Source: Mobula hypostoma
Lineage: Eukaryota
NCBI RefSeq assembly: GCF_963921235.1
Contig: NC_086108.1
Coordinates: 12,276,001-12,340,000 of the forward strand
Length of the DNA stretch: 64,000 bases
Direction of reading: 5' to 3'
Each line of letters opens with the position of its first letter. The first letter of the stretch is position 1. The translations under genes and the position numbers were made by a program. This document shows, piece by piece, positions 39,551 through 55,010 of the stretch. Below the pieces are notes generated by a model. The model was given only the letters and a program-made list of their open reading frames with translations. It had not been told where the DNA came from and ran no database searches.

Positions 39551-40319
39551 CAATGTTGGCAATCATTTCAAGAGGTCTAGAATATCAGAAAAGGGGTGCA
39601 TTGGCTTTAGAAGGCACTGGTGAGGCCTCACCATAAGTACTGTGAACAGTTCTGGGCTCCTCATCTAAGAAAAGATGTGCAGGCATTGGAGATGGTTCAA
39701 ATGAGGTACACAAGGATGATTCCAGGAATGAATGGGTCAACATATGAGGAACATTTGATAGCTCTGGGTCTGTACTCACTGGAATTTAGAAGGATGAGGG
39801 TGGGATCTCATTGAAACATTTTAAATTTTGAAAGGCCTGGACAGAGTAGATATGGAAGTCAATGGAAGTAGACAGTTTAGCTGGTTCAGCGTGGATTAAA
39901 TGCGCCAGAGAACCTGTTTCTGTGCTGTATTTTTCTATGAATAGGACTCTACAATGCAGTCAGATAAAGAATCAGAGAATAATGTTTTCTTGAGCAGTGA
40001 ATCATAAATAAAATATAAATAATTCTCACAGAGGGTGAAAGAGAAACCGGTTAAAGAGCTGAATAAAGAATTAGGTTGTGTGCGGGTCAGACTGGTACAC
40101 ACCATCAGTCTGGCTGCCATTCAATCACAAATGTGTTACGACCTCCCGGCTGGGGCGGGGAGGCTCATTGTTATGAAACCTGCACATCAGTGCGTGTGCA
40201 GGCCATGGGTACAGAGTCACTGCTTCAGATAAGACTCTGAACACGGTGGCTGATGGATTCTGGTCTCTGCTCCTCTCCTGACTCTCTGTGATCCCCAGCT
40301 CTTTGAGCTTTCAAATACT

Positions 40320-40830
40320 CATCCATCAATTGTAAATTTCTACCGATGTACCCTGGAGAGCGTTCTAACTGGCTGCATCACCATCTGGTATGGGGGTGGG
40401 GGGGAGCTACTGCACTGGATTGAAATAAGCTGCAGAGAGTTGTAAACTCACTCAGCTCCATCATGGGCACTAGCCTCCACAGAATCCAGGACATCTCCAA
40501 GGAGCAAAGCCTCAAAAAGGTGGCGTCCATCTTTAAGGATCTCCATCACCCAGGACATATTTTGTTCTCCTTGCTACCATCAGAAAGAAGGTACAGGAGC
40601 ATGAAGGTACACAATCAGTGATTCAGGAACGGCTCCTTCCCCTCTGCCATCCAATTTCTGAATGGACATTGAACCAATGAACATCACCTCACTACTTTCC
40701 TAAACTTGGTATTTTTGCACAACTTTCTGTAATTCAATATGTTTTTCCTATTATTATGTATTGCATTGTACTGCTGCTGTAAAGACAACATATTTTGTAA
40801 CATATGCCGGTGATATTAAACTTGATTCTG
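40320..40830 (+). mobile_element. Rex1/Babar-type 3' fragment
   Basis: aatttctaccgatgtacc.tggagagc...ccatcacccaggacat; ends gatattaaacttgattctgat. Confidence 0.75.
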
Positions 40831-41049
40831 ATCCTCGCATTCAACAGATCCACAAGACAGATCCAGAAAAACTGGCGAAATTCAGCGGGTCCAGTAGCAT
40901 GTGAGAGGAGAAAATAATTCTTGCCCTTTCTGCAACAAACTCTGCACTGAGAATTAATTATATCCACTGATCTGGCTGCCACCTCTCTGAGAGGCAGGAA
41001 TTCCATCAACTACTGGTGACAATGCTCACACACTTCCTCCAACAGTACA

Positions 41050-41460
41050 GGCTCTGGAGCTGTACTCACTAGAATTTGGAAGAATGGGCGGGGGGACCTG
41101 TCGAATTTTGTTTGTTGATAGAGTGGATGTGGCGAGGATGTTTGCTTTAGTGGGAGAGCCTCAGACCAGAGGCACAGAATAGAGGAATGTCCATTTAGAA
41201 AAGAAAAGAGGAGGAATTTCTTTAGCCAGAGGGTGGTGAATCTGCAGAATGCGTTGCCATAGGCGGTTGTGAAGACCAAGTCATTGGGTATATTTAAGGT
41301 AGAGGTTGATAGATTCTTGATTAGTCAGGGCATGAAGGGATATGGGGAGAAGGCAGGAGATTGGAGCTGAGGGAGAAATGGATCAGCTGTGATGAGATGG
41401 CAGAACAGACTGGAAGGGCCAAATGGCCCAATTTTTGGCTAATCGTAGGGGTCTATGGGC
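41050..41460 (+). mobile_element. CR1 3' fragment
   Basis: gaatttctttagccagagggtggtgaatctg; gggccaaatggccc stem-loop. Confidence 0.75.
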
Positions 41461-43244
41461 TAAAAAAATTTGGGAACTCCCAGATCACAGGGATCTCCAG
41501 CATGGGAGCAGTCACCCTGTAGAGTCCTGGAGAGAGGAGAATCAACAGATGAAGCTACTGGGTCACCAGGCAACATCAGGACAGATACTAAAACATCATA
41601 GCAGAGAAATAAGGTGAATGCATCCACCCAGCATGTGGACATGGCTGGAAAAGAGTTAAAACATAAAGACGGCCATTGAAACTGGTCCTGCCTTGCACTT
41701 CCAAGCACTAAACCATTGAAATATAACAACCTTTTTTACTAGTCCCTTAATTCCTATTCAATTCCAAAATTTAATTTGGTTGTAGAGAGGAGGCTGCCCC
41801 GTAGGTGATTCCTACTGAAGATTAATAAACAGGCCTGTCTCATATCTTCTGATCTTCAGTTCATAATGATCAGTGTAGGATGTTCATCAGCTAGATCATT
41901 TCCCCAGTCACAAAGTAAATTATCTATGTAAATTCAATTTTTAATAATTTCAAAGTAATTTCCTTTCAACAGAGAATCCACTAAACCTGTGTTAAATAGT
42001 GAATATGTAAGCCATTGACCTTTTACCTCTGATATCTAGTCCCTTTTGATCAAGCCAGGATTTAACTGCGGTCAGGTTAGAAAAGTTGTGGTGTGGGACT
42101 TGTAGAGAAACCAGATGCTGGAATGAAGAAAAACTGTACGCAACCTGATCTAATTTTCCACAAAATACCAAACCTGCCACTCTCCCAATGCAGAGCATCC
42201 TGTGACAACAACCAGCCCTACCTAGACCCAAATTCTGACCTCACCCAACTGCTCTGTGGTAGGGATTGCTTTCAGTTTGCTGGGGTTCCTGTAGTACAGC
42301 AGCCTAGATATCAACATCCTGCTCTTTAAAGTTCAAAGTTCAAAGTAAATTTATGATCAAAGTACAATATGTCACTAAATGCAATCTGAGATTCACCTTC
42401 TCGCATGCATTCATAGTGGAACAATGAAATCCAAAAGAACCAAGAAAAAACTACACGTAAGGATGAACAGACAACCAAAAGAAGACAAATGGTGCAAGTA
42501 AAAAAATAATAAATAGATAGAGAAAGGAATGGATGGATGGATAGAGAGATAGATAGATAAATAAGTAATACTGAAAACATGAGTTGTAGAGTCCTTGAAA
42601 GTGAGTCCATAGTTTGTGGAATCAGTTCAGCATTAAGGTGAGTGAAGTTATCCACAATGGGTCAAAGTTCAAAGTACAATTTATTGTCAGAGTGCATACA
42701 TATCATCAGATACAACCCTGAGTTTTTTTTTAGTTGATGGTTGTAGGGCAATAACTGTCCCATGATGAAAGGTAATATTGCAGTAAGATGCCAATAAAGA
42801 ATTCCTAACTCAATCCCTACAAAACCTTTTAAAGTATTATAAATGTCCTAAATAAAGTCAGAAGATATGAGATTAAGGTAGACACAAAAGAGCATTAATA
42901 AATTGAAACATTATTTTGAAGCTTATGGTCCTGAGGGAATCACAATATCAAATCAGCTTTTGTGGAAGATGTTGGGTTTGAAAATTTGCTAGCAGTAATA
43001 ACAGTTCAGTACATTGCTACGAAAGTCTCTGAGACTGGCATTTTACAGACATACACAAAACACTGGAAGAACTCAGCAGGTCAGGCAACATCAACAGAAA
43101 AGAATCAACAGTTGATGTTATGGGCCAACCCTTTATCGGAACTGTTTGTAAATCATTAAAATTTACAGCGAGGCAAGTGTTTTTTGTTTCAATGCAGATG
43201 GAATTTGCCAAAAGCAGAACTCTCAGATCTTCTAGAGAACGACA

Positions 43245-43640
43245 TTCTTGTCATGGTTTGGAGGCCTGCATGCCTCAATGACTCTGAAGAGCTACTGTAT
43301 GTTGGCAGCAGTCAGGGCCTTGCGCACTGGCTCTTGACAGGGTCACCCATGCCGAACAGGTCAAAGGGTAGAGGCCAGACTAAGAGTGGTCCACTGGTCC
43401 TCCAGGTTCAGGGGTTCAGCTCAGGGTTAACCTCCCTGACTGGTCAAACAAAATAGTTACCGAAACAACATTGGAGAACCTTTTATATCTGAGTGCAACG
43501 ATATTCCTGAGTCTCCACCCGGGACTTGCATGATTGACAGTAGTGAGAACTGAGCTACTGACATGATGGAGAAAGCTATGAACCATTCGTAGAGGACCTT
43601 CATTGCTGCCCTAACTGCCAACAGTGTAATGGGCATTAGA
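43245..43640 (+). mobile_element. Non-autonomous RTE-derived bipartite element (second copy)
   Basis: Colinear with 21845-22245 (ggtcctccaggtt..ggggttcagctcaggg; tattcctgagtctccaccc). Confidence 0.7.
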
Positions 43641-45292
43641 TAGAACTCTTGGAGCAACTTCCACTATCAATGTCCCCACAGAGTGCAGACCATTGCATAA
43701 TTCAATGGGTGTGTAACTGACCAATTAAAATTAAGGATTCAACATTTAGCAAAACAAAGAAACTGTTATCCACAACAAACCCGTAATGCTCTCCTGAAGA
43801 CAGGATCAATATTGGAGAAGCGACCATCAATCTCACACAACTGGCCCAGTTGTGTCAAAGCAGCCTGGTACATCACACTAATTCTGTAGATTTATATAAG
43901 CTTATTCCTAAGGGCACCAAATATCACTTTGATAATCTTATGTTGGCAAAATAGTAAAAGTCCACACATTTTGTTATTCAAACTAAATCAGGGAGATGGA
44001 AAAGGTTTATGTGGGTAAGGGACAAGATGGTTTAAAAGCAACAATGGCTTTTCATTTCTCAGTTAGGAGGAGAGATCAGCTGCCAGATAATGTCAATATT
44101 CTAGCTGAGTGCAATCCAATAATGAGGAGGTAGTGAGGAAGCTCTAACAGCCAACTCCCACTCTCCCTTACAGTGTTATCTTCAAGGGCATCTGAAATCA
44201 CTAAACTGCGAGTAGATAGATAGATAGTTCATTGATCCCAAAGGAAATGACAGTGTCACAGTAATATTACTAACGCACAGAATTCACCCCACTGACCCCG
44301 AGGAATCTGTCTCAGGTCTAGGCATCTCAATATCCCTTAGAATAGGAGTATTTCATCATCCTGGTGGATCTCCTGATACATATAATTTGATCTTGTACAC
44401 ACACTGTAATGTGAGCCCTCAGGGATTTGCTCACTACTTCATTAGTTCTTTCATTTTACACTTCCCTATCTCTCTGTCATCCCTTCATTTCACTCCAGAA
44501 AATAGCAGTTGAGAAATTAATCCTGTTCTCAAATCATTTGCTGAGGTGGTGTTTATCTGCCTGGACCTCAGCCAGATTCCTCAGGGTCAGTGGGGTGGAT
44601 TCTGTGATTGGACGCAATGTAAGTGTCATGGTGTGCATTGATAGACAACTGAACCCATGTGTGGCAAAACGACAGACTCCCATGTTGAGACAGTATCAAG
44701 AGTTTATTCATAGGAATTCCAACTGAATATCAGAGCCTAGACCGAGCGATACCATGAGACAAATCATCCTCAACTCACAAGGGCCCCATGATCTGCACTA
44801 ATTGGGAGTCCGTTTTAAGTAAGCGCAGTACACTGAAAACCCGTGCCAGTCAAAATGCACTTGACAAGATTAAACAGAAAGCACAAGAGTGTAGCAACTT
44901 TAGGTAAGAGAGCAATTAACAAATACAGGCCCACAGGCCCAAAGGGCACATGACAGTAAGGGACAGTGTGGGTGGGCAGGGTAGCCTGGACTCCTTCTGT
45001 ACAGGTAGGTAACTAAGGAGGCTCAGCCACTCTACAAACTGACTGGATGTGTATCAAAAATAGCTTTTAAGTGGAGAGATGCTAGATCCCTACTAGACTG
45101 ACCTTCATACACCAGTGCGCACAGTCTGTCTCTTAAGGGAGCACTTGACTGACTCTGCTGGTAATGAAGCTGCTGTACTGTTAATGTCCATAGAACACTG
45201 ACATGGCTCTTTCAGAAAACTTGCCATCTAAAAAGACATCAGCACACTGCACAATAATCGATTTGCTTTTAATCTGCCCAGAGCCCCTCGGA

Positions 45293-46527
45293 TATAGAAA
45301 CATAGAAACATAGAAAATAGGTGCAGGAGTAGGCCATTCGGCCCTTCGAGCCTGCACCGCCATTTATTATGATCATGGCTGATCATCCAACTCAGAACCC
45401 AGCCTTCCCTCCATACCCCCTGACCCCTGTAGCCACAAGGGCCATATCTAACTTCCTTTTAAACATAGCTAATGAACTGGCCTCAACAGTTTGCTGTGGC
45501 AGAGAATTCCACAGATTCACCACTCTCTGTGTGAAGAAGTTTTTCCTAACCTCGGTCCTAAAAGGCTTCCCCTCTATCCTCAAACTGTGACCCCTCGTTC
45601 TAGACCTCCCCAACATCGGGAACAATCTTCCCGCATCTAGCCTGTCCAATCCCTTTAGGATCTTATACGTTTCAATCAGATCCCCCCTCAATCTTCTAAA
45701 TTCCAACGAGTACAAGCCCAGTTCATCCAGTCTTTCTTCATATGAAAGACCTGCCATCCCAGGAATCAATCTGGTGAACCTTCTTTGTACTCCCTCTATG
45801 GCAAAGATGTCTTTCCTCAGATTAGGGGACCAAAACTGCACACAATACTCCAGGTGTGGTCTCACCAAGGCCTTGTACAACTGCAGTAGTACCTCCCTGC
45901 TCCTGTACTCGAATCCTCTCGCTATAAATGCCAGCATACCGTTCGCCTTTTTCACCGCCTGCTGTACCTGCATGCCCACTTTCAATGACTGGTGTATAAT
46001 GACACCCAGGTCTCGTTGCACCTCCCCTTTTCCTAATCGGCCACCATTCAGATAATAATCTGTTTTCCTATTTTTGCCACCAAAGTGGGTAACTTCACAT
46101 TTATCCACATTAAATTGCATCTGCCATGAGTTTGCCCACTCACCCAACCTATCCAAGTCACCCTGCATCCTCTTAGCATCCTCCTCACTGCTAACACTGC
46201 CACCCAGCTTTGTGTCATCCGCAAACTTGGAGATGCTGCATTTAATTCCCTCATCCAAGTCATTAATATATATTGTAAACAACTGGGGTCCCAGCACTGA
46301 GCCTTGCGGTACCCCACTAGTCACCGCCTGCCATTCTGAAAAGGTCCCGTTTATTCCCACTCTTTGCTTCCTGTCTGCTAACCAATTCTCCACCCACACC
46401 AATACCTTACCCCCAATACCGTGTGCTTTAAGTTTGCACACTAATCTCCTGTGTGGGACCTTGTCAAAAGCCTTTTGAAAATCCAAATATACCACATCCA
46501 CTGGTTCTCCCCTATCCACTCTACTAG
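45293..46527 (-). mobile_element. Very young 5'-truncated CR1
   Basis: Uninterrupted 375-aa frame to the natural stop, clean (tttctatg)n tail, CpGs retained. Confidence 0.95.
45392..46519 (-). pseudogene. CR1 ORF2 RT C-terminal half
   Basis: Motifs [31 protein letters not shown] and FFTQRVVNLWNSLP. Confidence 0.95.
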
Positions 46528-46694
46528 ATCTGTGGGTGAGGCCGATATACTTTAATCTCCAGAGTAACTATGGGACACTTCAACAAGTGTGTATTCATGG
46601 TTGGATTTATGCAGCTGCCTTGTTCCAGGGTAAAATCTCCCTGGACCTTTCATTACTTCAATCACTGAGTCCATGTTTCACCTTCTCTCCTGTG

Positions 46695-47398
46695 TCCAGT
46701 GCCATCAAGAGCTGACTCACCAGATGGTGACAAGAGGGCATACAGGAGTGAGATATATCAGCTAGTTGAGTGGCGTTGCAGCAGAAACCTTGCACTGACA
46801 ACTGATTATGGATTTCACAAAGGGTTAAATGAGGGAACACATACCAGCAGAAAGAATGAGCAGTTTCAAGTTCCTGGGTGTCAATATCTCTGAGGATCTA
46901 ACGTGGACCCAACATATTGACCCAGCTACAAAGAAGGTACAACAGCAGCTATATTTCATTAAGAGGTTGAGGAGATTTGGTACATCACCAAAAACACTCG
47001 CAAATTTCTACAGATGTATGTGGAGAGCATTATAACTGGCTACATCACCATCTGATATGGTGGGGGGGGGGGGTGTTGCTACTGCACAGGATCTAAGTAA
47101 GCTACAGAAAGTTGTAAACAGTCAGCTCCATCATGAGTGCTGGCCTCCACAGTATTCAGGACATCTTCAAGGAGAAATGCCTCAGAAAGGTGGTGTCCAT
47201 CAATTTTTTAAAGAACCTCATCACCCAGAACATGCCCTCTTCTCATTGCTACCATCAGTGAGGTGGTACAGGAGCATGAAGACACACACTCGATGATCCA
47301 GAAACAGCTTCTTCCCCTCTACTGTCCGATTTCTGAATGGACATTGTACCCATCATTACCCACCACTACTTTTTTTAATTTTTATTTCTGCACTACTA
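46695..47398 (+). mobile_element. Rex1/Babar-type 3' fragment, ending where the HERO tail begins
   Basis: ORF 46829-47035 reads FKFLGVNISEDLTW..LYFIKRLRRF; later PHHPEHALFSLLPS. Confidence 0.8.
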
Positions 47399-50300
47399 GA
47401 ATTGAATTGAATTGAAAATACACTTGGACTAAGATGTCAACTGTCCTGTGCTGTCACCAGTGGGATCATCAGTTGATCTGCCACCTGTCTTCAGGAGTTT
47501 CGGCCCACTTATGATCAAGGCTCCCTCGAGATGGTGGGCCAGCAGTGCTAAAGCACCACCTCCCACTGGTGAGCTTAAAAACTTGGCATCTGCCTCTATC
47601 AGAGTTGTTGGTCACTTCCATCCAACAGATAGTCTACAGGTGTCTATGCAACTACTGATGGATTTGCAAAAGATGGATACACTGTCTGACTATCTGCCCC
47701 TCTGGACATACTTGGTCCACACCCATGCTGATCCTGTCTCTGCTGCCTCAGCTACTGCCCTGCTGGTTGACTTGATCTCTCTTCTAGTGAAGCCAAAGTC
47801 ACGCAGCCACTTCTGTCACAACTTTGAGAACATTGCTATGTCTCCAAGTATACATGCCACTGGAAGGATTGACTCTGCATGCACTCAAAATATGTTGAAG
47901 TGTTCCCTTCTCGCCACAAGCAGCACACCCGTCTGTCTTATCTTCATATCAGGTGTTGAGGTTGGCAGGTGTTGGGAGCAGGTCATACGCTGCTCTGCAT
48001 AGAAAAAGAATGCAGAGCAGTTCCATCTGCCACAGAATATTTCAAGACAGATGTCGTTGTGCAACACTCTCCCATCATGTCCAAGCCCCTTATTTGGTCA
48101 GGCCAGCTGTTTTAGTTAATCGCTTCTCCTCTTCTACCTCTAGTGTTTCTTGCGTTACAAGCTCACGGCGCTCCTTACCTGTAGAAGATGACCACCACTT
48201 GTGGGTTGTCCATCCAAGTCCCTGGCGGCCTAGTTGGATAGCCCCAACCGTCTCCTTGTGCTTCAATCTGGACTCTGCCTCATCAACTGCTACATGGGCT
48301 GACCACTTCCTGCCTGATCTCACATCCTCCTGGGTGTTCTTGATGACAGGGTCTTTTGGGTCTTGAAGCATCAAGAATGATCTTACCTTGGCTACCTTGA
48401 CTTCTTCTACAAGGGATTGCACTGGGATGGTAAGCTTTGTCTGGCTACTGTGGATTGCAACACTGGTGAGGCTGCTCAGTACTCCAAGCCATTTCTTCAC
48501 ATACTTGTTGATCTTCCATTCCATTGCCTCAACATGGGACATTTCCACTTCATAGACAGTGGCCACATTATCCATGGCATCAGTCCGTACTGCAAGCACC
48601 ACAACTTCAACTTGCCAGGCAAGCCACACTTGTTGATAGATATCAGACCTCTGCTGATCTGTTCTCCTGTCTCTTGAACCCTCTTGGTGTTCTCAGCTCC
48701 TCTGTGTACCATTGCCCGAGTCTCTTAACTGGTTGGTCCTGAATGGATGGAATCTCCTCTCCACAAAGGGTGAAATGAATGTTCACCGGCTTTCCTCTCT
48801 TAAGAACAAGGTTCCTTGACTTCTTGGTCTTGAACTTCACTCTTCACCAATCCATTAGCTCCTCGAGTCTAGATAGTACACTTTCCACTGCCTCCGTGCT
48901 GGGACCCAAAAGGGTGAGATCATCCATGAATACTCGTATTGGTTGTAACTCCCCTCCGCCATCATGTGCGACACCTGGTCCCACTGATTCTGCAGCCCTC
49001 ACAATGACCTCCATGGCCAACACAAAAAGGATGGGTGAAATCGCACATCCCATTGAGATTCCAACATCCAAGCTCTGCCACCTAGTTGTAAACTGCTGAG
49101 TGGAAAACCTCATCCGGAAATCGTTGTAGTACTGCATAATAAATTTCCTCACCTTAGCAGGAATCCATAGAAATTCCATCACAAACTCAATCAGGACATG
49201 CGGAAACAGAACCATACGTATTTGCAAGATCAAGCCAAACTACAGCTAAATTTCTTCTTAGCCTTTTCGACCCCTGGATGGTATGTCATATCATACTAGA
49301 ACGTTCAAGGCATCCCGGGAAGCCTGGTATTCCTGCCTTCTGCACAGACCATTTAACAGTCCATTCTCTATCACATTCTTTCTGCTAGAATGCCAAACAT
49401 AATCTTCCCCTCTACCTTCAGGAGTGAAAATGGTCAGAACTGATTCAATGTAGAAGAATTCTCTTCCTTCGGGATGTATACTCCTTCAGCCTCACTCCAT
49501 GACAAAGGAACAACACCTTGTCTCCACACCACCTTTAACAATCTCCACAAGTATTTCCTCAGCTCTTCACACTTCTTGAACACCTTATACGGCACTCCAT
49601 TAGGTTCTGGCACTGAGCCTGACCTTGTCTTTCTGATGAACTGTTCGACTTCTGCCAGTTTGGGTTCTGACAGATTGAACTTCACTCCTGGCTTGGTAGG
49701 CTTCACAAGCCCTGAAATGTCAAGCAAAGGAGCCTCCCGCTGTTCGTTCGAGTAAGTGCTTGCCAGGTGATCCTCAAGTTCTTGTTGAGAGATGTTAAGC
49801 TGCCCGCTCTTACTTTGTTCAAACAACTTCTTTGTGAACTGGTGAGGATTCTCAAAGAATGGCTTTCTTGCCTTCTGTCTCTTCTTTCTCTTTTTACGTT
49901 GTGACTCTGCATGACAGAGCGATGCTAAATTTAATCAAAAATGCTCTCCAAGATCAGCAAGCCCTGGCTTGTCACCCTCACTTGCTACCTTCCACCTCTG
50001 TCTCAATGATCTAAGCTCTCTCCTCAACCTGCTAATCTCCTTCTGGTGCCTGCTTGGTTGCTGTGTAGGCTTTGCTTTCTTCAACTCAACCAGACCAAAC
50101 CGGTACTTTCCAGCATCATAAGTCATATCGCCCATCCTTCCAACTTTCTGTTTGATGTTCCCCTGAGAGTGTTCTCCAACATCATACTGATATCCTCATC
50201 AAACACACGCCAGGTCTTCTCATCTGCCATTGCTGGCCATTTGACCTTCCTCTTCTTCTCTACCTCCACACCACCGCCATCATGCGAAGGATCTACCTGG

Positions 50301-50800
50301 GTACTGTGGTCTGAAACCTGATCTGGGTTATCTGTCATCTGACCTGGAGTATGATGACTCTCTTCAGAGCGAATCGCAGTGGTTTGTGAATCAGTGGTTG
50401 AAAAGACCACATCATCTGTGCTTGGTGAAGAAATCTCATCTTCATCCACTGGGATGGAATAGCACTTCAACTTTGCTTGGTGGACTTGTGCTTGAAAACA
50501 CTCTCCCACACCAATACACTGGACATTCAGAGCCTCTTACCCTAGCTCTTGGTCATAGTCGTTCCCTGTAATTAACTGTATCCGTCCGATTGGGTCCATC
50601 ATTCTCCCTCCCTCTTGGAGGACCCTGAGGGTATGTTTCTCCATGTAAACTAGAAGCTTCAAGAGGTGGGTGCTCTTCTGAGCTGGTGCCCGGACTGCAA
50701 ATCCCGACACCCCCGGTGCCAATCTTTCCTGGCTGTCAGCTGTCTCTCCACGCTGTCACCGGACTATTCCTGGTGGTCACTGGTGTCCAGAACTGAAGGT
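47399..50800 (-). mobile_element. Near-full-length decayed HERO-type (R2 group, RLE-class) non-LTR retrotransposon
   Basis: Remnant of a single ORF: N-terminal Zn finger (..VHQAKLKC), VKWP, GSVPEPNGVPYKVFKKC, GISMGCAISPILF, FMDD, CCHC knuckle CAAC..HILSAC, RH, C-terminal AAETGSAWVW, stop at 47690-47692. (TTCAA)n tail at 47399-47416. The 5' end is approximate. Confidence 0.85.
47454..47572 (-). ncRNA. Candidate pseudoknotted, kink-turn-containing hammerhead ribozyme in the HERO 3' UTR
   Basis: CTGATGA (47472-47466) and GAAA (47501-47498), with stem I TTGATC/GATCAA, stem II GGCCCA/TGGGCC, stem III CTCCT/GGGAG, an extra helix CCATCT/AGGTGG and a 12-bp closing helix. Position U16.1 is C in this copy. 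Confidence 0.7.
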
Positions 50801-51044
50801 ACAATAGTCTGAATGGCCAGATGGTTCTTTTCTTTCCTTACAGGGGAAAAGCAAAGATGGGATGTTTAGTGATGTGTAACCTCAGACAGATGGTAATCCA
50901 TGAGAAAATGAACTGGCCAAGGGATAGAGTCAAGAAGGCAAGAAGGACAAATAGGCAGAGAGAGGTGCGGGAGGCAATGGTAATACTCCTTTCCCTTCTT
51001 CTACCTTCTGAATGGTATAACAGCACGATATAGGTCAGTTGCAT

Positions 51045-53505
51045 ATATACTTTATATACTTTATACTTTATACTTTATTGTCACCAAACAATTGGTACTA
51101 GAACATACAATCATCACAGCGATATTTGATTCTGCGCTTCACACTCCCTGGATTACAAATATTAAATATTAAATATACTTAAAGTAGTTAAAATTAGTAA
51201 ATATTAAAAATTTAAATTATAAATCATAAATAGAAAATAGAAAAATGGGAAGTAAGGTAGTGCAAAAAAACTGAGAGGCAGGTCCAGATATCTGGAGGGT
51301 ACGGCCCAGATCTAGGTCAGGATCCATTCAGCAGTCTTATCACAGTTGGAAAGAAGCTGTTCCCAAATCTGGCCATACGAGTCTTCAAGCTCCAAAACCT
51401 TCTCCCAGAGGGAAGAGGGACGAAAAGTCTATTGTCTGGGTGGGTCCTGTCCTTGATTATCCTGGCAGCACTGCTCCGACTGTCACAATAGCGGGGGCAT
51501 TGGGAGCAAGGGTGGACCCAAATTCAAGACACATCTTGTGAGGTTAATTAAATTTAGTTTTTTGTTTGAAACCAGGAGAGCAAGGCAGGAGTAGGAATAG
51601 TGAACTGGACAAGGACTGAGGACTATGACTAGGCTGGGACCAAGGGTCTGGCCTAGGACTCGGAATCGGCTCCCAGAACTAGAGGAGACATGAAGAGGCT
51701 AGGGTATGGACTCCGAGCCAGAGACTGGGCAAGGACCCAGTATCTGGGTCTTGCCTCGGGCTCGGACCCCAGAACCAGGCATGGACATGACATGGGCTAG
51801 GTAGAGGAGGAACATGGGCTAGGTAGAGGAGGAACATGGAATACAGAGCCTCGGTCTCGGGAGAGCAGGTACATGGAACCATGGACACATACACAGAACA
51901 CAGAGTTGGGACCCCTCCTTGAATACAGGACATAGGGCCGGGACTCACACACAGAACAGAGAGCCGGGACCCCTCCTTGGGTACAGGACATAGGGCCGGG
52001 ACTCATGACCCTCCGTGGGGCAACAGCAAGATGGCCTGAATTACCCCACGGAGGCGAGGACAAGACAAGACAGAACATGACCCCCCCTCCCCCCCCCCGC
52101 GGGGCAACAGCAAGACGGCCTGACTTACCCCACGGAGGCGAGGACAAGACAAGACCAACACGAAAGCACACCAGACAATACCTATCTAGCTCCGGCGATA
52201 GAACTAGACTGAAGTGCAGGCGAGGGATGCAGACGAGGGCTAGAGGCGAGAGGGGCAGAGAAGGGATTCAGACAGCGGGGTCGGACAGGAATCACAGACC
52301 GCTGAGGTCAGGACTTGACTCAGAACTGGGAAGCCGCCAGGGACAGGACTTGACTTGATACTTGAATGCCACCCGGGCCAGGACTTGAGTTGACGTGGTA
52401 CTTGGATGCCGCCGGAGCCAGGACGTGGTGCTTGGAGCCTCCAGGTAGTGGTGAGCTCTAGACTCGGCCCAGGAACAGTAGACAGCAGCTCCTGATTCTC
52501 TCTGGCGGGTTAACCGACAGACCCACCTTGATGAGGAAACTTTGCAGGCTCACTTCGATGAGGTAACTGGACAGGGTTGCTCTGGTGAGGAAGGACGAAT
52601 TACTGGCACTCGCTTCGGCAGAGACTAGGCTTGCTCCGGCCAGATGACATCGGCACACCGTACCTTTGATGACTTTGCAGACGCTCCCGCGCCGAACGGC
52701 TGAAATTCGGAGACTATAAACTACCGGTTCAGCTGAGCGTTAATTGCCTCTAATCACCAAAGCTGAGGGACACGGGAAAACAGGGAATCAACGGTCCGGG
52801 TTGTAACAAACAAGGTAAATTTAAAGGGACCTTGATCCAGACCATGACACCGACAGCGTGTAGTGTAAAGTGAGTCCACAGATGGAAGATTGGTTTGTGT
52901 GATGTGCTGCACCGTGTTCACGATCTTCTGCAGCTTCTTTTGGTCTTGGACAGGACAACTTCCATACCAGGTTGTGATGCACCCTTTAAGAATGCTTTCT
53001 TCCTGTGCATCTATAAAAATTAGTGAGGGTTTTAGGGGACAGGCCAAATTTCTTTAGTTTTCTCTGGAAGTAAAGGGGCTGGTGGGCCTTCTTGGCAGTG
53101 AACTCTGCTTGGTTGGACCAAGTCAGGTCAATTGTGATACTGACCCCGAGGAACTTAAAGCTTTTGACCTGTTCCACTTGCGCACCACCGATGTAGATGG
53201 GGTCGTGCGGTCCGCTACTCCTTCTGAAGTCAACAATCAATTCCTTCATCTTGCTGACATTGAGGGATAGGTTATTGTCCTCACACCATGCCACCAGGTT
53301 CTTAATTTCCTCTCTGTACTCAAACTCATCATTACCCAAGACACGGCCTACAATTGTTGTGTCATCAGCAAACTTATATATTGAGTTTGATGGAAACTTG
53401 GCTACACAATCATGGGTGTACAGTGAGTTCAGCAGGGGACTGAGTACACAGCCTTCTGGGGCACCGGTGCTCAGAGTGATTGTAGAGGAGAGCTTGTCCC
53501 CTATT
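51045..53505 (-). mobile_element. Rex1/Babar-type LINE 3' half interrupted by a solo LTR
   Basis: TGAPEGCVLSPLL/KFADD region at about 53350-53470. ORF 52986-53339 reads LNVSKMKELIVDFRR..FKFLGV. (tataaag)n tail at about 51045-51075. Confidence 0.9.
51481..52849 (-). mobile_element. Long solo LTR (1369 bp), Gypsy-like
   Basis: TGTCA...TGACA termini, perfect 5-bp TSD ccgac at 51476-51480 and 52850-52854, internal subrepeats, TATA-like motif near 52715. Confidence 0.9.
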
Positions 53506-53519
53506 TTGGGGTTCTGTCC

Positions 53520-54357
53520 TATCTATATCGCAGAGAATTGGTAGATGGAGTTTAAACCAGATAAATATGAGGTATCGCACCTCGGTAGGGCAAGCAGAAG
53601 GAGATAGTACACTGTTAAGGACAAGTTCCTTAACAGTGATGCTAAACAAAAAGATCATGGGATCCAATTTCATAGCTCCTTGAAAGTGGCTACACAGGTC
53701 GATAGACTGGTTAAGAAGGCTTATTAAGTGCTTGTATTACTCAAGCCATTGAGTACAAAAGTCAAGAATTTATTCTGCAACTTTATAAAACTCTGGTTAG
53801 GCCACAAATGGAGTATTGTATACAGTTCTGATCACCGCACTATAGGAAGGATGCTGAGGTTTCAGAGAGGGTGCAGCAGAGGTTTACCAGGATGATGCCT
53901 GGTTTAGAGGGCATGTATTATGAGAGGATAAAAAAATTGGGTTGCTCTGGAGCACTGGAGGCTGAGGTGAGATCTGATAGAGGTTTATAAGATTATGAGA
54001 GATTTAGGTAGAGTAGACGGGGAGTATTTGTTTCCATGGTTGAAATGTCTAATGCCAGAAAGCATGCATTGGAGGTGAGAGGGGATAGGTTTAAGAGGGA
54101 CATGAGGGGTAGGTTTTTTGACTCAGAGAGTGGTGGATGCCTGGAATGTGCTGCCTGGTATGGTGGTAGAGGCAAATACGTTAGAGGCTTTGAAGAGATA
54201 TTTGGATGGACACATGAAGATGGAGGGACACGGAAATGTTGTAGGTAGGAAGGATTAGTGTTTGGGAGTTTTTGATTTGCTTTGCTTTTTAGCTGGTTCA
54301 GCACAATGTTGAGGGCCAAATGGCCTGTTCCTGTGCTATACTGTTCTATGCTCTATG
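53520..54357 (+). mobile_element. CR1 3' fragment
   Basis: gatggagtttaaaccagataaa...gagtattgtatacagttctg; tail gttctatgctctatg. Confidence 0.8.
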
Positions 54358-54509
54358 AAAAGTGATGTAAGAACAGAGAAACCTGGGGAGTCATCTCCAA
54401 GTAAGGCAACATAAGACAAACTCAACTATTCATTGGTGGAGAGGTCAGGAACTTGGGAGAAGATAATGAATGTGATTGACAAAAGGACCAGAAAGTGAGG
54501 GCTAATTTG

Positions 54510-55010
54510 TAGCATTGTGTGCAGTTTTGGTCACCAACCTACAGGAAAGATGTAAATAAGGTTGAAAATTTACAAGGATGTTGCCAGGACTGGAGGGCCT
54601 GAGCTATAAGGAAAGATTGAATAGGTTAGGACTTTATTCCTTGGAACGTAGAAGACTGGAGGGAGATTTGATGGAGGTATAGATAGTGTAAATGAAAGCA
54701 GGCTTTTTCCACTGAGGTTGGGTGGGACTACACCAGAGGTTAAGGGTGAAAGGTGAAAAGTTTAAGGGGAACATAAGGGGAAACTTCTTCACTCAGAGGG
54801 TGGTGAGAGTGTGGAATGAACTGCCAGCACAAGTGGTGCATGCAAGCTTGATTTCCACTCTTAAGAGAAGTTTGGATAGGTACATGGATGGTAGGGGTAT
54901 GGAGGGCTATGATCCAGGAGCAGATCAATGAGACTAGGCAGTTTAAATAGTTCAGCACAGACTAGATAGGCTGAAGGGCCTTTTCCTATGCTGTATTTTT
55001 CTATGACTCT
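54510..55010 (+). mobile_element. CR1 3' fragment
   Basis: ORF 54722-54931 reads RGNFFTQRVVRVWNELP. Confidence 0.8.

Follow-up and report, generated by a model that had tools for sequence, protein, structure and literature searches.

The motif and its host element

The window analysed here is a 64,000-nucleotide (nt) stretch of the Mobula hypostoma genome (contig NC_086108.1, positions 12,276,001 to 12,340,000), and this report concerns a 119-nt motif at 47454-47572 on its minus strand that is, very probably, a hammerhead-class ribozyme motif maintained by selection. As first proposed, the motif lies in the 3′ untranslated region (UTR) of a long interspersed nuclear element (LINE) with zinc-finger, reverse transcriptase (RT), CCHC and putative restriction-like endonuclease regions, which terminates at ~47400. 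The element is organized as follows.

47693-50793 (-), LINE body, a decayed copy with frameshifts; its 5′ end is at 50793
47573-47692 (-), upstream part of the 3′ UTR, with the family stop codon TAG at 47690-47692
47454-47572 (-), the motif
47400-47453 (-), 3′-terminal tail: 39 nt running to ...GTGTATTTT (47415), then three CAATT repeats (47400-47414)

The RT domain was recognized as RVT_1 (E 3.3e-07), zf-RVT was matched below its cut-off (E 0.0036), and the PDB returned weak matches to R2 proteins (E 0.003-0.004). A C2H2-like finger is encoded in other copies, and a CCHC motif followed by an RPD...E...K tail, which we take to be the restriction-like endonuclease, was read by eye in P0001. A PDB search with the C-terminal 483 amino acids gave no match, and in the protein atlas the matches were to generic RT zinc-binding clusters only. 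Judged from these features, the predicted architecture is R2-like, and the HERO clade named in the initial annotation is a putative assignment. A CAATT tail was present on 46 of the 50 3′ ends that could be classed by search pattern, and the copies diverge from one another beyond the repeats.

Layout of the motif

Read from 47572 to 47454 on the minus strand, the 119-nt sequence is identical to the one originally described, and each of its segments was re-read by coordinate.

47561-47572 (-), 5′ strand of helix P0, 12 nt, pairing with 47454-47465 and closing the whole motif
47541-47560 (-), variable hairpin (HP) that separates P0 from stem II; an arm in the proposed four-way junction
47535-47540 (-), 5′ strand of stem II (G10.1 to 10.6), upstream of the cleavage strand and not directly after CUGAUGA
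47529-47534 (-), 5′ strand of helix PX, complementary to 47481-47486; PX corresponds to the 'interaction' helix between stems I and II in type-SGC hammerheads
47526-47528 (-), CGA, between the PX 5′ and stem III 3′ strands
47521-47525 (-), 3′ strand of stem III, GGGAG
47520 (-), position 16.1, C in the window copy and U in the family
47519 (-), C17, with the predicted scissile bond at 47519/47518
47513-47518 (-), 5′ strand of stem I (1.1-1.6)
47508-47512 (-), ATAAG linker from stem I to stem II
47502-47507 (-), 3′ strand of stem II, the last base being C11.1
47498-47501 (-), GAAA (G12, A13, A14, A15.1), invariant in intact copies of four lineages
47493-47497 (-), 5′ strand of stem III
47487-47492 (-), GAAGAC, between the stem III 5′ and PX 3′ strands
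47481-47486 (-), 3′ strand of PX
47479-47480 (-), CA, between the PX 3′ and stem I 3′ strands
47473-47478 (-), 3′ strand of stem I
47466-47472 (-), CTGATGA (CUGAUGA, C3 to A9), directly after the stem I 3′ strand, invariant in intact copies of four lineages
47454-47465 (-), 3′ strand of P0 (P0′), beginning immediately after A9

Block S (47513-47525), block G (47493-47507) and the CUGAUGA strand (block C, 47466-47478) follow one another in the order S, G, C from 5′ to 3′. The initial annotation had recognized here a hammerhead core in the order UH, GAAA, CUGAUGA, and every helix indeed abuts the core as it had described. Because CUGAUGA runs directly into P0′, P0 directly into the hairpin and the hairpin directly into G10.1, the core, stem II, the hairpin and P0 meet without an unpaired nucleotide. 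We infer that they form a perfect four-way junction, its three-dimensional arrangement included, with the chain crossing over at A9/G10.1 in the window family and at 10.1/10.2 in two relatives; continuity between CUGAUGA and stem II exists only via this helix junction. The minimum free energy (MFE) structure of the 119-nt RNA is -57.4 kcal/mol (z = -5.50, with 0 of 200 shuffles as good), and P0, the hairpin and stem II all lie within this nested fold.

Chance occurrence and database searches

A structured repeat could simply happen to contain CTGATGA and GAAA, and the permissiveness of the core lends this alternative some weight: a relaxed descriptor (core plus three stems in any order, with the stem II 5′ strand anywhere) is expected to match ~280 times by chance in 3.2e10 nt, and a bare core with three stems is therefore not significant for a scan of such size. 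The three additional, disjoint 6-base-pair (bp) helices that join the stem II loop to the 3′ segment, however, arose in merely 13 of 60000 composition-preserving shuffles. Moreover, when both strands of 722,306 nt, comprising the collected loci and the window, were scanned, the descriptor gave no match other than family copies. The initial annotation had anticipated that standard descriptors would miss the motif, and Rfam returned no ribozyme family match at E up to 10 in positions 40000-55000 of the window, at E up to 5 in three of the tandem-junction loci described below, or at E up to 10 in the loci of four relatives.

Conservation among copies of the family

The motif stretch yielded at least 1648 first-look candidates in the 3.48-Gb genome, 40 of which were scored; among these, the window itself aside, identity to the window copy is 93-96%. 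T occupies position 16.1 in 42 of 45 aligned genomic copies (27 of 30 in an earlier 30-copy alignment), and the active sequence of the family therefore had GUC, CGAAAC and CUGAUGA. The C at 47520, owing to which the window copy itself lacks the A15.1-U16.1 feature, had been put down to decay of the element, and a consensus likewise devoid of U would have counted against the hammerhead proposal. It is indeed private to the window copy, U being carried by the family majority and by four other organisms. In the latter, where depth figures derive from assembled contigs, U at 16.1 is essentially fixed (150.7 of 150.7, 12.2 of 12.2, 3748.9 of 3755.6 and 63389.3 of 63610.6 depth), and among the rows listed no variant of CUGAUGA reaches 5%. 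In one of them (organism E), a P0 pair has changed from C-G to U-A, at depths of 8686.9/10171.8 and 3209.7/5497.7.

The window copy also departs from its family at 47531 in PX, where a T gives a G-U pair; since the majority base is C (28 of 30 copies), PX consists of six Watson-Crick pairs in the family. Under the full pseudoknotted structure, 96.4% of 1452 cells are paired across 45 aligned copies, 33 of them distinct; the figure falls to 23.7-47.7% when the partners are slid by 1-3 columns.

Compensatory changes in diverged relatives

To collect relatives, metagenome contigs were searched in a protein-guided manner, the query being the C-terminal 483 amino acids (P0001). The strand-order (S-G-C) descriptor matched 7 of the 30 CTGANGA sites in the 39 loci that encode relatives, all seven downstream of the end of the open reading frame (ORF), against a chance expectation of ~0.1 as estimated from simulated rates. 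Four of these matches (L093, L094, L096 and L101) are of a form that we call type A, two (L095 and L112) are of type B, and L107 is nearest to the window family. Protein identity to P0001 is 44-56%, with the exception of L112, whose match is confined to a 39-residue stretch at 69%. BLAST added decayed copies of type A (L099, L106, L092 and L111) and type B (L129). In nine relatives' loci the sequence covers the ORF end plus 250 nt or more downstream; the motif is intact in five, decayed in two, a fragment in one (L111) and absent from one (L116).

Base pairs were compared by script from the core outwards across four lineages, namely the window family, L107, type A and type B; a MAFFT alignment, misregistered by 3 columns in its 3′ half, was not used. 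CUGAUGA, GAAA, A15.1-U16.1 and G10.1-C11.1, the closing pair of stem II, are invariant in the intact copies of all four. Position 17 is C in the window family and A in L107 and types A and B, and is never G. Meanwhile, 11 of the 22 pairs compared have changed on both sides.

Stem I: UUGAUC/GAUCAA in the window family, GCAUGG/CCAUGC in type A, GCAUGG/CCAUGC in type B; 6 of 6 pairs changed on both sides
Stem III: GGGAG/CUCCU in the window family, CAGCGA/UCGCUG in type A, GUCG/CGAC in type B; 3 of 5 changed on both sides
PX: CCACCU/AGGUGG in the window family, CCUCC/GGAGG in type A, CCUUCC/GGAAGG in type B; 2 of 5 changed on both sides
Stem II: invariant in the window family and types A and B; 0 of 6 changed on both sides
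P0: 12 bp in the window family, 13-15 bp in type A, 14 bp in type B; sequences differ, no per-pair count

The covariation on which the original proposal had been staked is thus found in stems I and III and in PX, which change and stay complementary in diverged relatives, and P0, too, remains paired there with other sequences. That the motif recurs, with such compensation, at the corresponding site of diverged elements also argues against coincidence and, together with the shuffles and the scan described above, makes a chance resemblance extremely improbable. The dimensions of the motif vary around the conserved core: P0 and stem II are separated by a hairpin of 20 nt in the window family and of 24 nt in type B, and by an insert of 52-54 nt in type A; stems I and II are linked by 5 nt in the window family, against 2-3 nt in types A and B; and PX is 5-6 bp long. 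In types A and B, only G10.1 has stayed with A9, and the chain crosses over one pair deeper (10.1/10.2), a shift of one step between lineages that fits a helix junction and not an accident. A decayed type-B copy (L129:1150-1300) was further observed to have another variable hairpin, still perfectly paired (~11 bp), and a mutated catalytic core.

Relationship to known hammerheads

The initial annotation had taken the strand order for a fourth hammerhead topology of which it knew no description. This part of the proposal does not hold: the order UH, GAAA, CUGAUGA is that of type SGC, one of the non-circularly permuted hammerheads found and validated by Eckert, Friedrich, Weinberg and Weinberg (NAR 2023, PMC10085705), where types CSG and GCS are likewise reported. 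In type SGC, ~3 nt link stem I to stem II, and the segment that precedes I3′ pairs with the one that follows II5′ to form a further helix. The present motif is alike in its strand order, in the mutual pseudoknotting of stems I, II and III, in the few nucleotides that join stems I and II, and in PX, which corresponds to the interaction helix; stem III can connect directly to that helix in type SGC, as it does in the type A relatives. The two differ in that the CUGAnGA strand of type SGC runs into stem II, with at most one extra U, and in that the type SGC chain ends at stem III and after the interaction helix. In the present motif those ends are connected (via CGA in the window family), and the chain is opened at A9/10.1 or 10.1/10.2 and closed by P0 and the variable hairpin. 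Formally, it is a type-SGC hammerhead whose free ends have been joined by CGA and whose chain has been re-opened inside block C. Block C being interrupted, with the stem II 5′ strand upstream, it is hence not a plain member of type SGC.

The same paper assumes that none of the three blocks can be interrupted, because known hammerheads have at most 1-2 inserted nucleotides adjoining CUGAnGA. Its examples come from IMG/M metagenomes and metatranscriptomes, except for one bacterial type-GCS sequence, and are linked to hairpin-ribozyme RNAs (PMC10085705); the present motif, in contrast, resides in LINE 3′ UTRs of an animal genome. The claim of novelty thus fails for the strand order, the short linker and the equivalent of PX. 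No description of a hammerhead in HERO or R2-like LINEs or in an animal LINE host, of a split block C, or of the tandem context described below was found in the literature searched, subscription-only papers lying outside it. The separation of the CUGAUGA strand from stem II, with the two rejoined via P0 and the hairpin, is unlike any hammerhead described there.

R2 and other LINEs carry ribozymes similar to that of hepatitis delta virus (HDV-like) at the 5′ end of the element. The present case resembles these in that a predicted self-cleaving RNA sits on a LINE with a restriction-like endonuclease, putative in this element, and would trim co-transcripts, and differs both in ribozyme class and in location (3′ UTR here versus 5′ end there). 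Mammalian CLEC2 3′ UTRs contain a discontinuous hammerhead with an enlarged stem I loop and normal strand order. There, too, the strands of the hammerhead are widely separated along the 3′ UTR sequence, whereas here the order is permuted and the break adjoins A9 or G10.1.

Partial tandems upstream of full-length copies

The 5′ region of the element gave 358 first-look candidates, from which 29 non-self loci with a full-length 5′ end were sampled. In 24 of these, the 5′ end is preceded, head to tail, by a partial copy of the 3′ UTR. The upstream copies end at ...GTGTATTTT and meet the full-length copy at one uniform junction, GTAACTCTTTT (a one-letter variant exists), devoid of CAATT repeats. 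Their start points vary; the longest (L064) measures at least 1.45 kb, and in 12 loci the whole motif is included. The motif is thus also found upstream of full-length copies. Two of the 50 classable 3′ ends show a few junction letters instead of, or before, the CAATT tail, as would be expected if the template RNA ran past the usual end. In one upstream/downstream pair (L089/L041), 10 derived sites are common and 9 and 12 are private, which, from this single case (n=1), fits either one insertion event or one subfamily. No target-site duplications were evident by eye, and the relatives' metagenome contigs hold no downstream N-terminal ORF.

Hammerheads have been described in the pseudo-long terminal repeats of Penelope-like elements and in retrozymes (PMC4209133, PMC7229834, PMC11167929), and according to the last of these papers, hammerhead-bearing partial tandems are a hallmark of Penelope-like elements, whose reverse transcription starts inside a multi-copy RNA (PMC11167929). 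The element studied here shares with both the partial head-to-tail tandems, the hammerhead in the repeated terminal region and insertion 3′ ends that are uniform though the template evidently continued past them. Their hammerheads, in contrast, are of type I and often minimal. Penelope-like elements moreover encode a telomerase-like RT and a GIY-YIG endonuclease, while the element here is R2-like; no GIY-YIG match was obtained from Pfam at E up to 1. Having partial tandems but no such match, and a C-terminus with CCHC and RPD...E...K, it is therefore Penelope-like in genome organisation only and not a Penelope-like element. Nor is it a retrozyme in the usual sense, in that retrozymes are non-autonomous and this element encodes its own RT.

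Several further observations concern the copy ends. Among 16 mapped 5′ ends of upstream copies, seven (L066, L068, L072, L073, L085, L088 and L090) cluster at motif positions 69-73 (C11.1/GAAA) and 97-103 (stem I 3′ strand/CUGAUGA), which suggests RT stalling at the folded core. The 5′ UTR begins with an 8-letter copy of the P0 5′ strand (CACCAGTG, 50778-50785 (-)), which at a tandem junction (L081:1400-1600) lies ~70 nt downstream of the P0′ of the upstream copy; it may compete with P0, such that the upstream and downstream ribozymes behave differently, or may be there by chance. In three loci (L067, L077 and L087), the full-length copy already starts within the upstream tail, 26-33 nt short of its end (at ...TCTTAGTCC), possibly a transcription start that would give the RNA a short terminal repeat. 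In the upstream copy of L076, P0′ is precisely deleted between the repeats TGATGA and TGGTGA, and in that of L085 the P0′ stretch is replaced by altered sequence.

A probable role in RNA processing

The explanation that we favour as a whole, its predicted cleavage and processing role included, is likely, and runs as follows. Selection would maintain a hammerhead motif in the 3′ UTRs of one R2-like LINE clade, and intact copies are expected to cleave after C17, at the equivalent of the 47519|47518 bond. Transcripts would contain the motif on both sides of the coding unit, and the ribozyme would then trim longer-than-unit RNA, as has been proposed for Penelope-like elements and retrozymes. Cleavage need not separate the products, and re-ligation or circularisation would be favoured, because P0, II, PX, III and I (~40 bp) hold them together. 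Reverse transcription started internally and reading round would give rise to the partial tandems.

A number of points weigh against this explanation. Of 29 copies sampled with the 3′ fragment alone, none starts at U1.1, nor does U1.1 occur among the 16 mapped starts of upstream partial copies, which speaks against a simple '5′ end maker'. The helix junction adjoining A9 may cost activity. Within the young family there is no covariation (one double change in 1452 cells, matched by 65-98 of 500 shuffles), as is expected since the copies are 93-96% identical. Across lineages, stem II never varies and therefore has no covariation support; PX is degraded in L107 to 4 of 6 pairs; one of the four other organisms (organism H) has mostly U at 11.1, giving a G-U pair, on 5 contigs; and the motif is not intact in 4 of the 9 relatives' loci that hold the ORF end. 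The comparison, besides, spans three or four lineages, and stem I differs as one block, so that the independent events are few. In the anole Penelope-like element, finally, ribozyme mutants were without effect on insertion in vitro, and RNA-seq reads ending at the cut site were not seen (PMC11167929); a hammerhead in such a place thus need not be essential.

On another reading, the motif would be mainly a 3′ UTR fold recognized by the RT for target-primed reverse transcription, with a hammerhead-like core, derived or mimic, that no longer cuts because the strand break adjoining A9 disables it. R2-type elements have an RT-binding 3′ UTR, and the location of the motif agrees with such a role. 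So do the absence of copies starting at the predicted cut and the clustering of upstream-copy 5′ ends inside the fold, as if a stable structure stalls the RT. An insertion adjoining A9 is also unprecedented according to PMC10085705. Protein binding alone, however, gives no reason for an invariant CUGAUGA, GAAA, U16.1, non-G 17 and G10.1-C11.1, and the catalytic bases are kept while the surrounding helices change among lineages at 44-56% protein identity. RT recognition and ribozyme function are, in addition, not mutually exclusive. A fold that has lost cleavage altogether appears to us unlikely.

Alternatively, the motif might be active only as an intermolecular or inter-copy assembly, be it a domain-swapped dimer or the halves of a tandem transcript, with the protein of the element perhaps needed. 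Hammerheads of Penelope-like elements reportedly act as dimers (Lunse et al. 2017), and two copies of the motif would be present in tandem transcripts. The ribozyme of the anole element needed the element's protein (PMC11167929). Yet a single 119-nt stretch contains every pairing partner in cis, with a helix of 12-15 bp to close it, and validated type-SGC ribozymes act in cis (PMC10085705). An obligate assembly of this sort is, in our view, very unlikely.

Our favoured explanation, trimming by the motif in cis, has a more far-reaching version, in which this autonomous R2-like LINE clade would be an animal 'autonomous retrozyme'. Longer-than-unit transcripts would be cut at two copies of the caged, split hammerhead; the ends of the unit-length RNA, held by ~40 bp of ribozyme helices, would be re-ligated to a circle; and the RT, starting from an internal site (...UAUUUU), would go round more than once, yielding the partial tandems with their seamless junction. 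We put this version forward tentatively and consider it rather doubtful.

Other features of the element and its surroundings

The window copy carries an internal deletion of ~410 nt at 47804-47815 (-), in the endonuclease domain and at the short repeat CAGAAG, where other copies are continuous; a 415-nt unit resembling a short interspersed nuclear element (SINE) was accordingly rejected. Most full-length copies bear a 32-nt tandem duplication (ACCAGGAATAGTC...) ~20-50 nt from their 5′ end, which the window copy is devoid of. Four loci (L063, L066, L070 and L074) hold internally deleted elements in which ~700-800 nt of the 5′ region are joined to the last 260-400 nt (3′ UTR and motif); these may be non-autonomous riders comparable to R2's short internally deleted elements. 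The element is flanked by open frames of unrelated RT-bearing LINE fragments, CR1/L2-like by eye.

45392-46567 (-), open frame of an unrelated RT-bearing LINE fragment
52986-53522 (-), open frame of an unrelated RT-bearing LINE fragment

Implications

If the favoured explanation is true, non-circularly permuted hammerheads, so far known only from environmental RNA linked to hairpin ribozymes, would be present in a high-copy animal retrotransposon. R2-like LINEs, for which the ribozymes known so far are HDV-like, would thereby gain their first hammerhead. Irrespective of the retrozyme version, the motif would also represent a further hammerhead topology, with a helix junction interrupting the CUGAnGA block. 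The assumption that the blocks are uninterruptible would then fall, with wider descriptor searches and wider options for engineering as the consequence. The Penelope-like partial tandems, for their part, point to a logic common to unrelated retroelements, one that is testable at the bench with short natural RNAs: a ribozyme in a repeated end, combined with internal initiation or reading round of the template.

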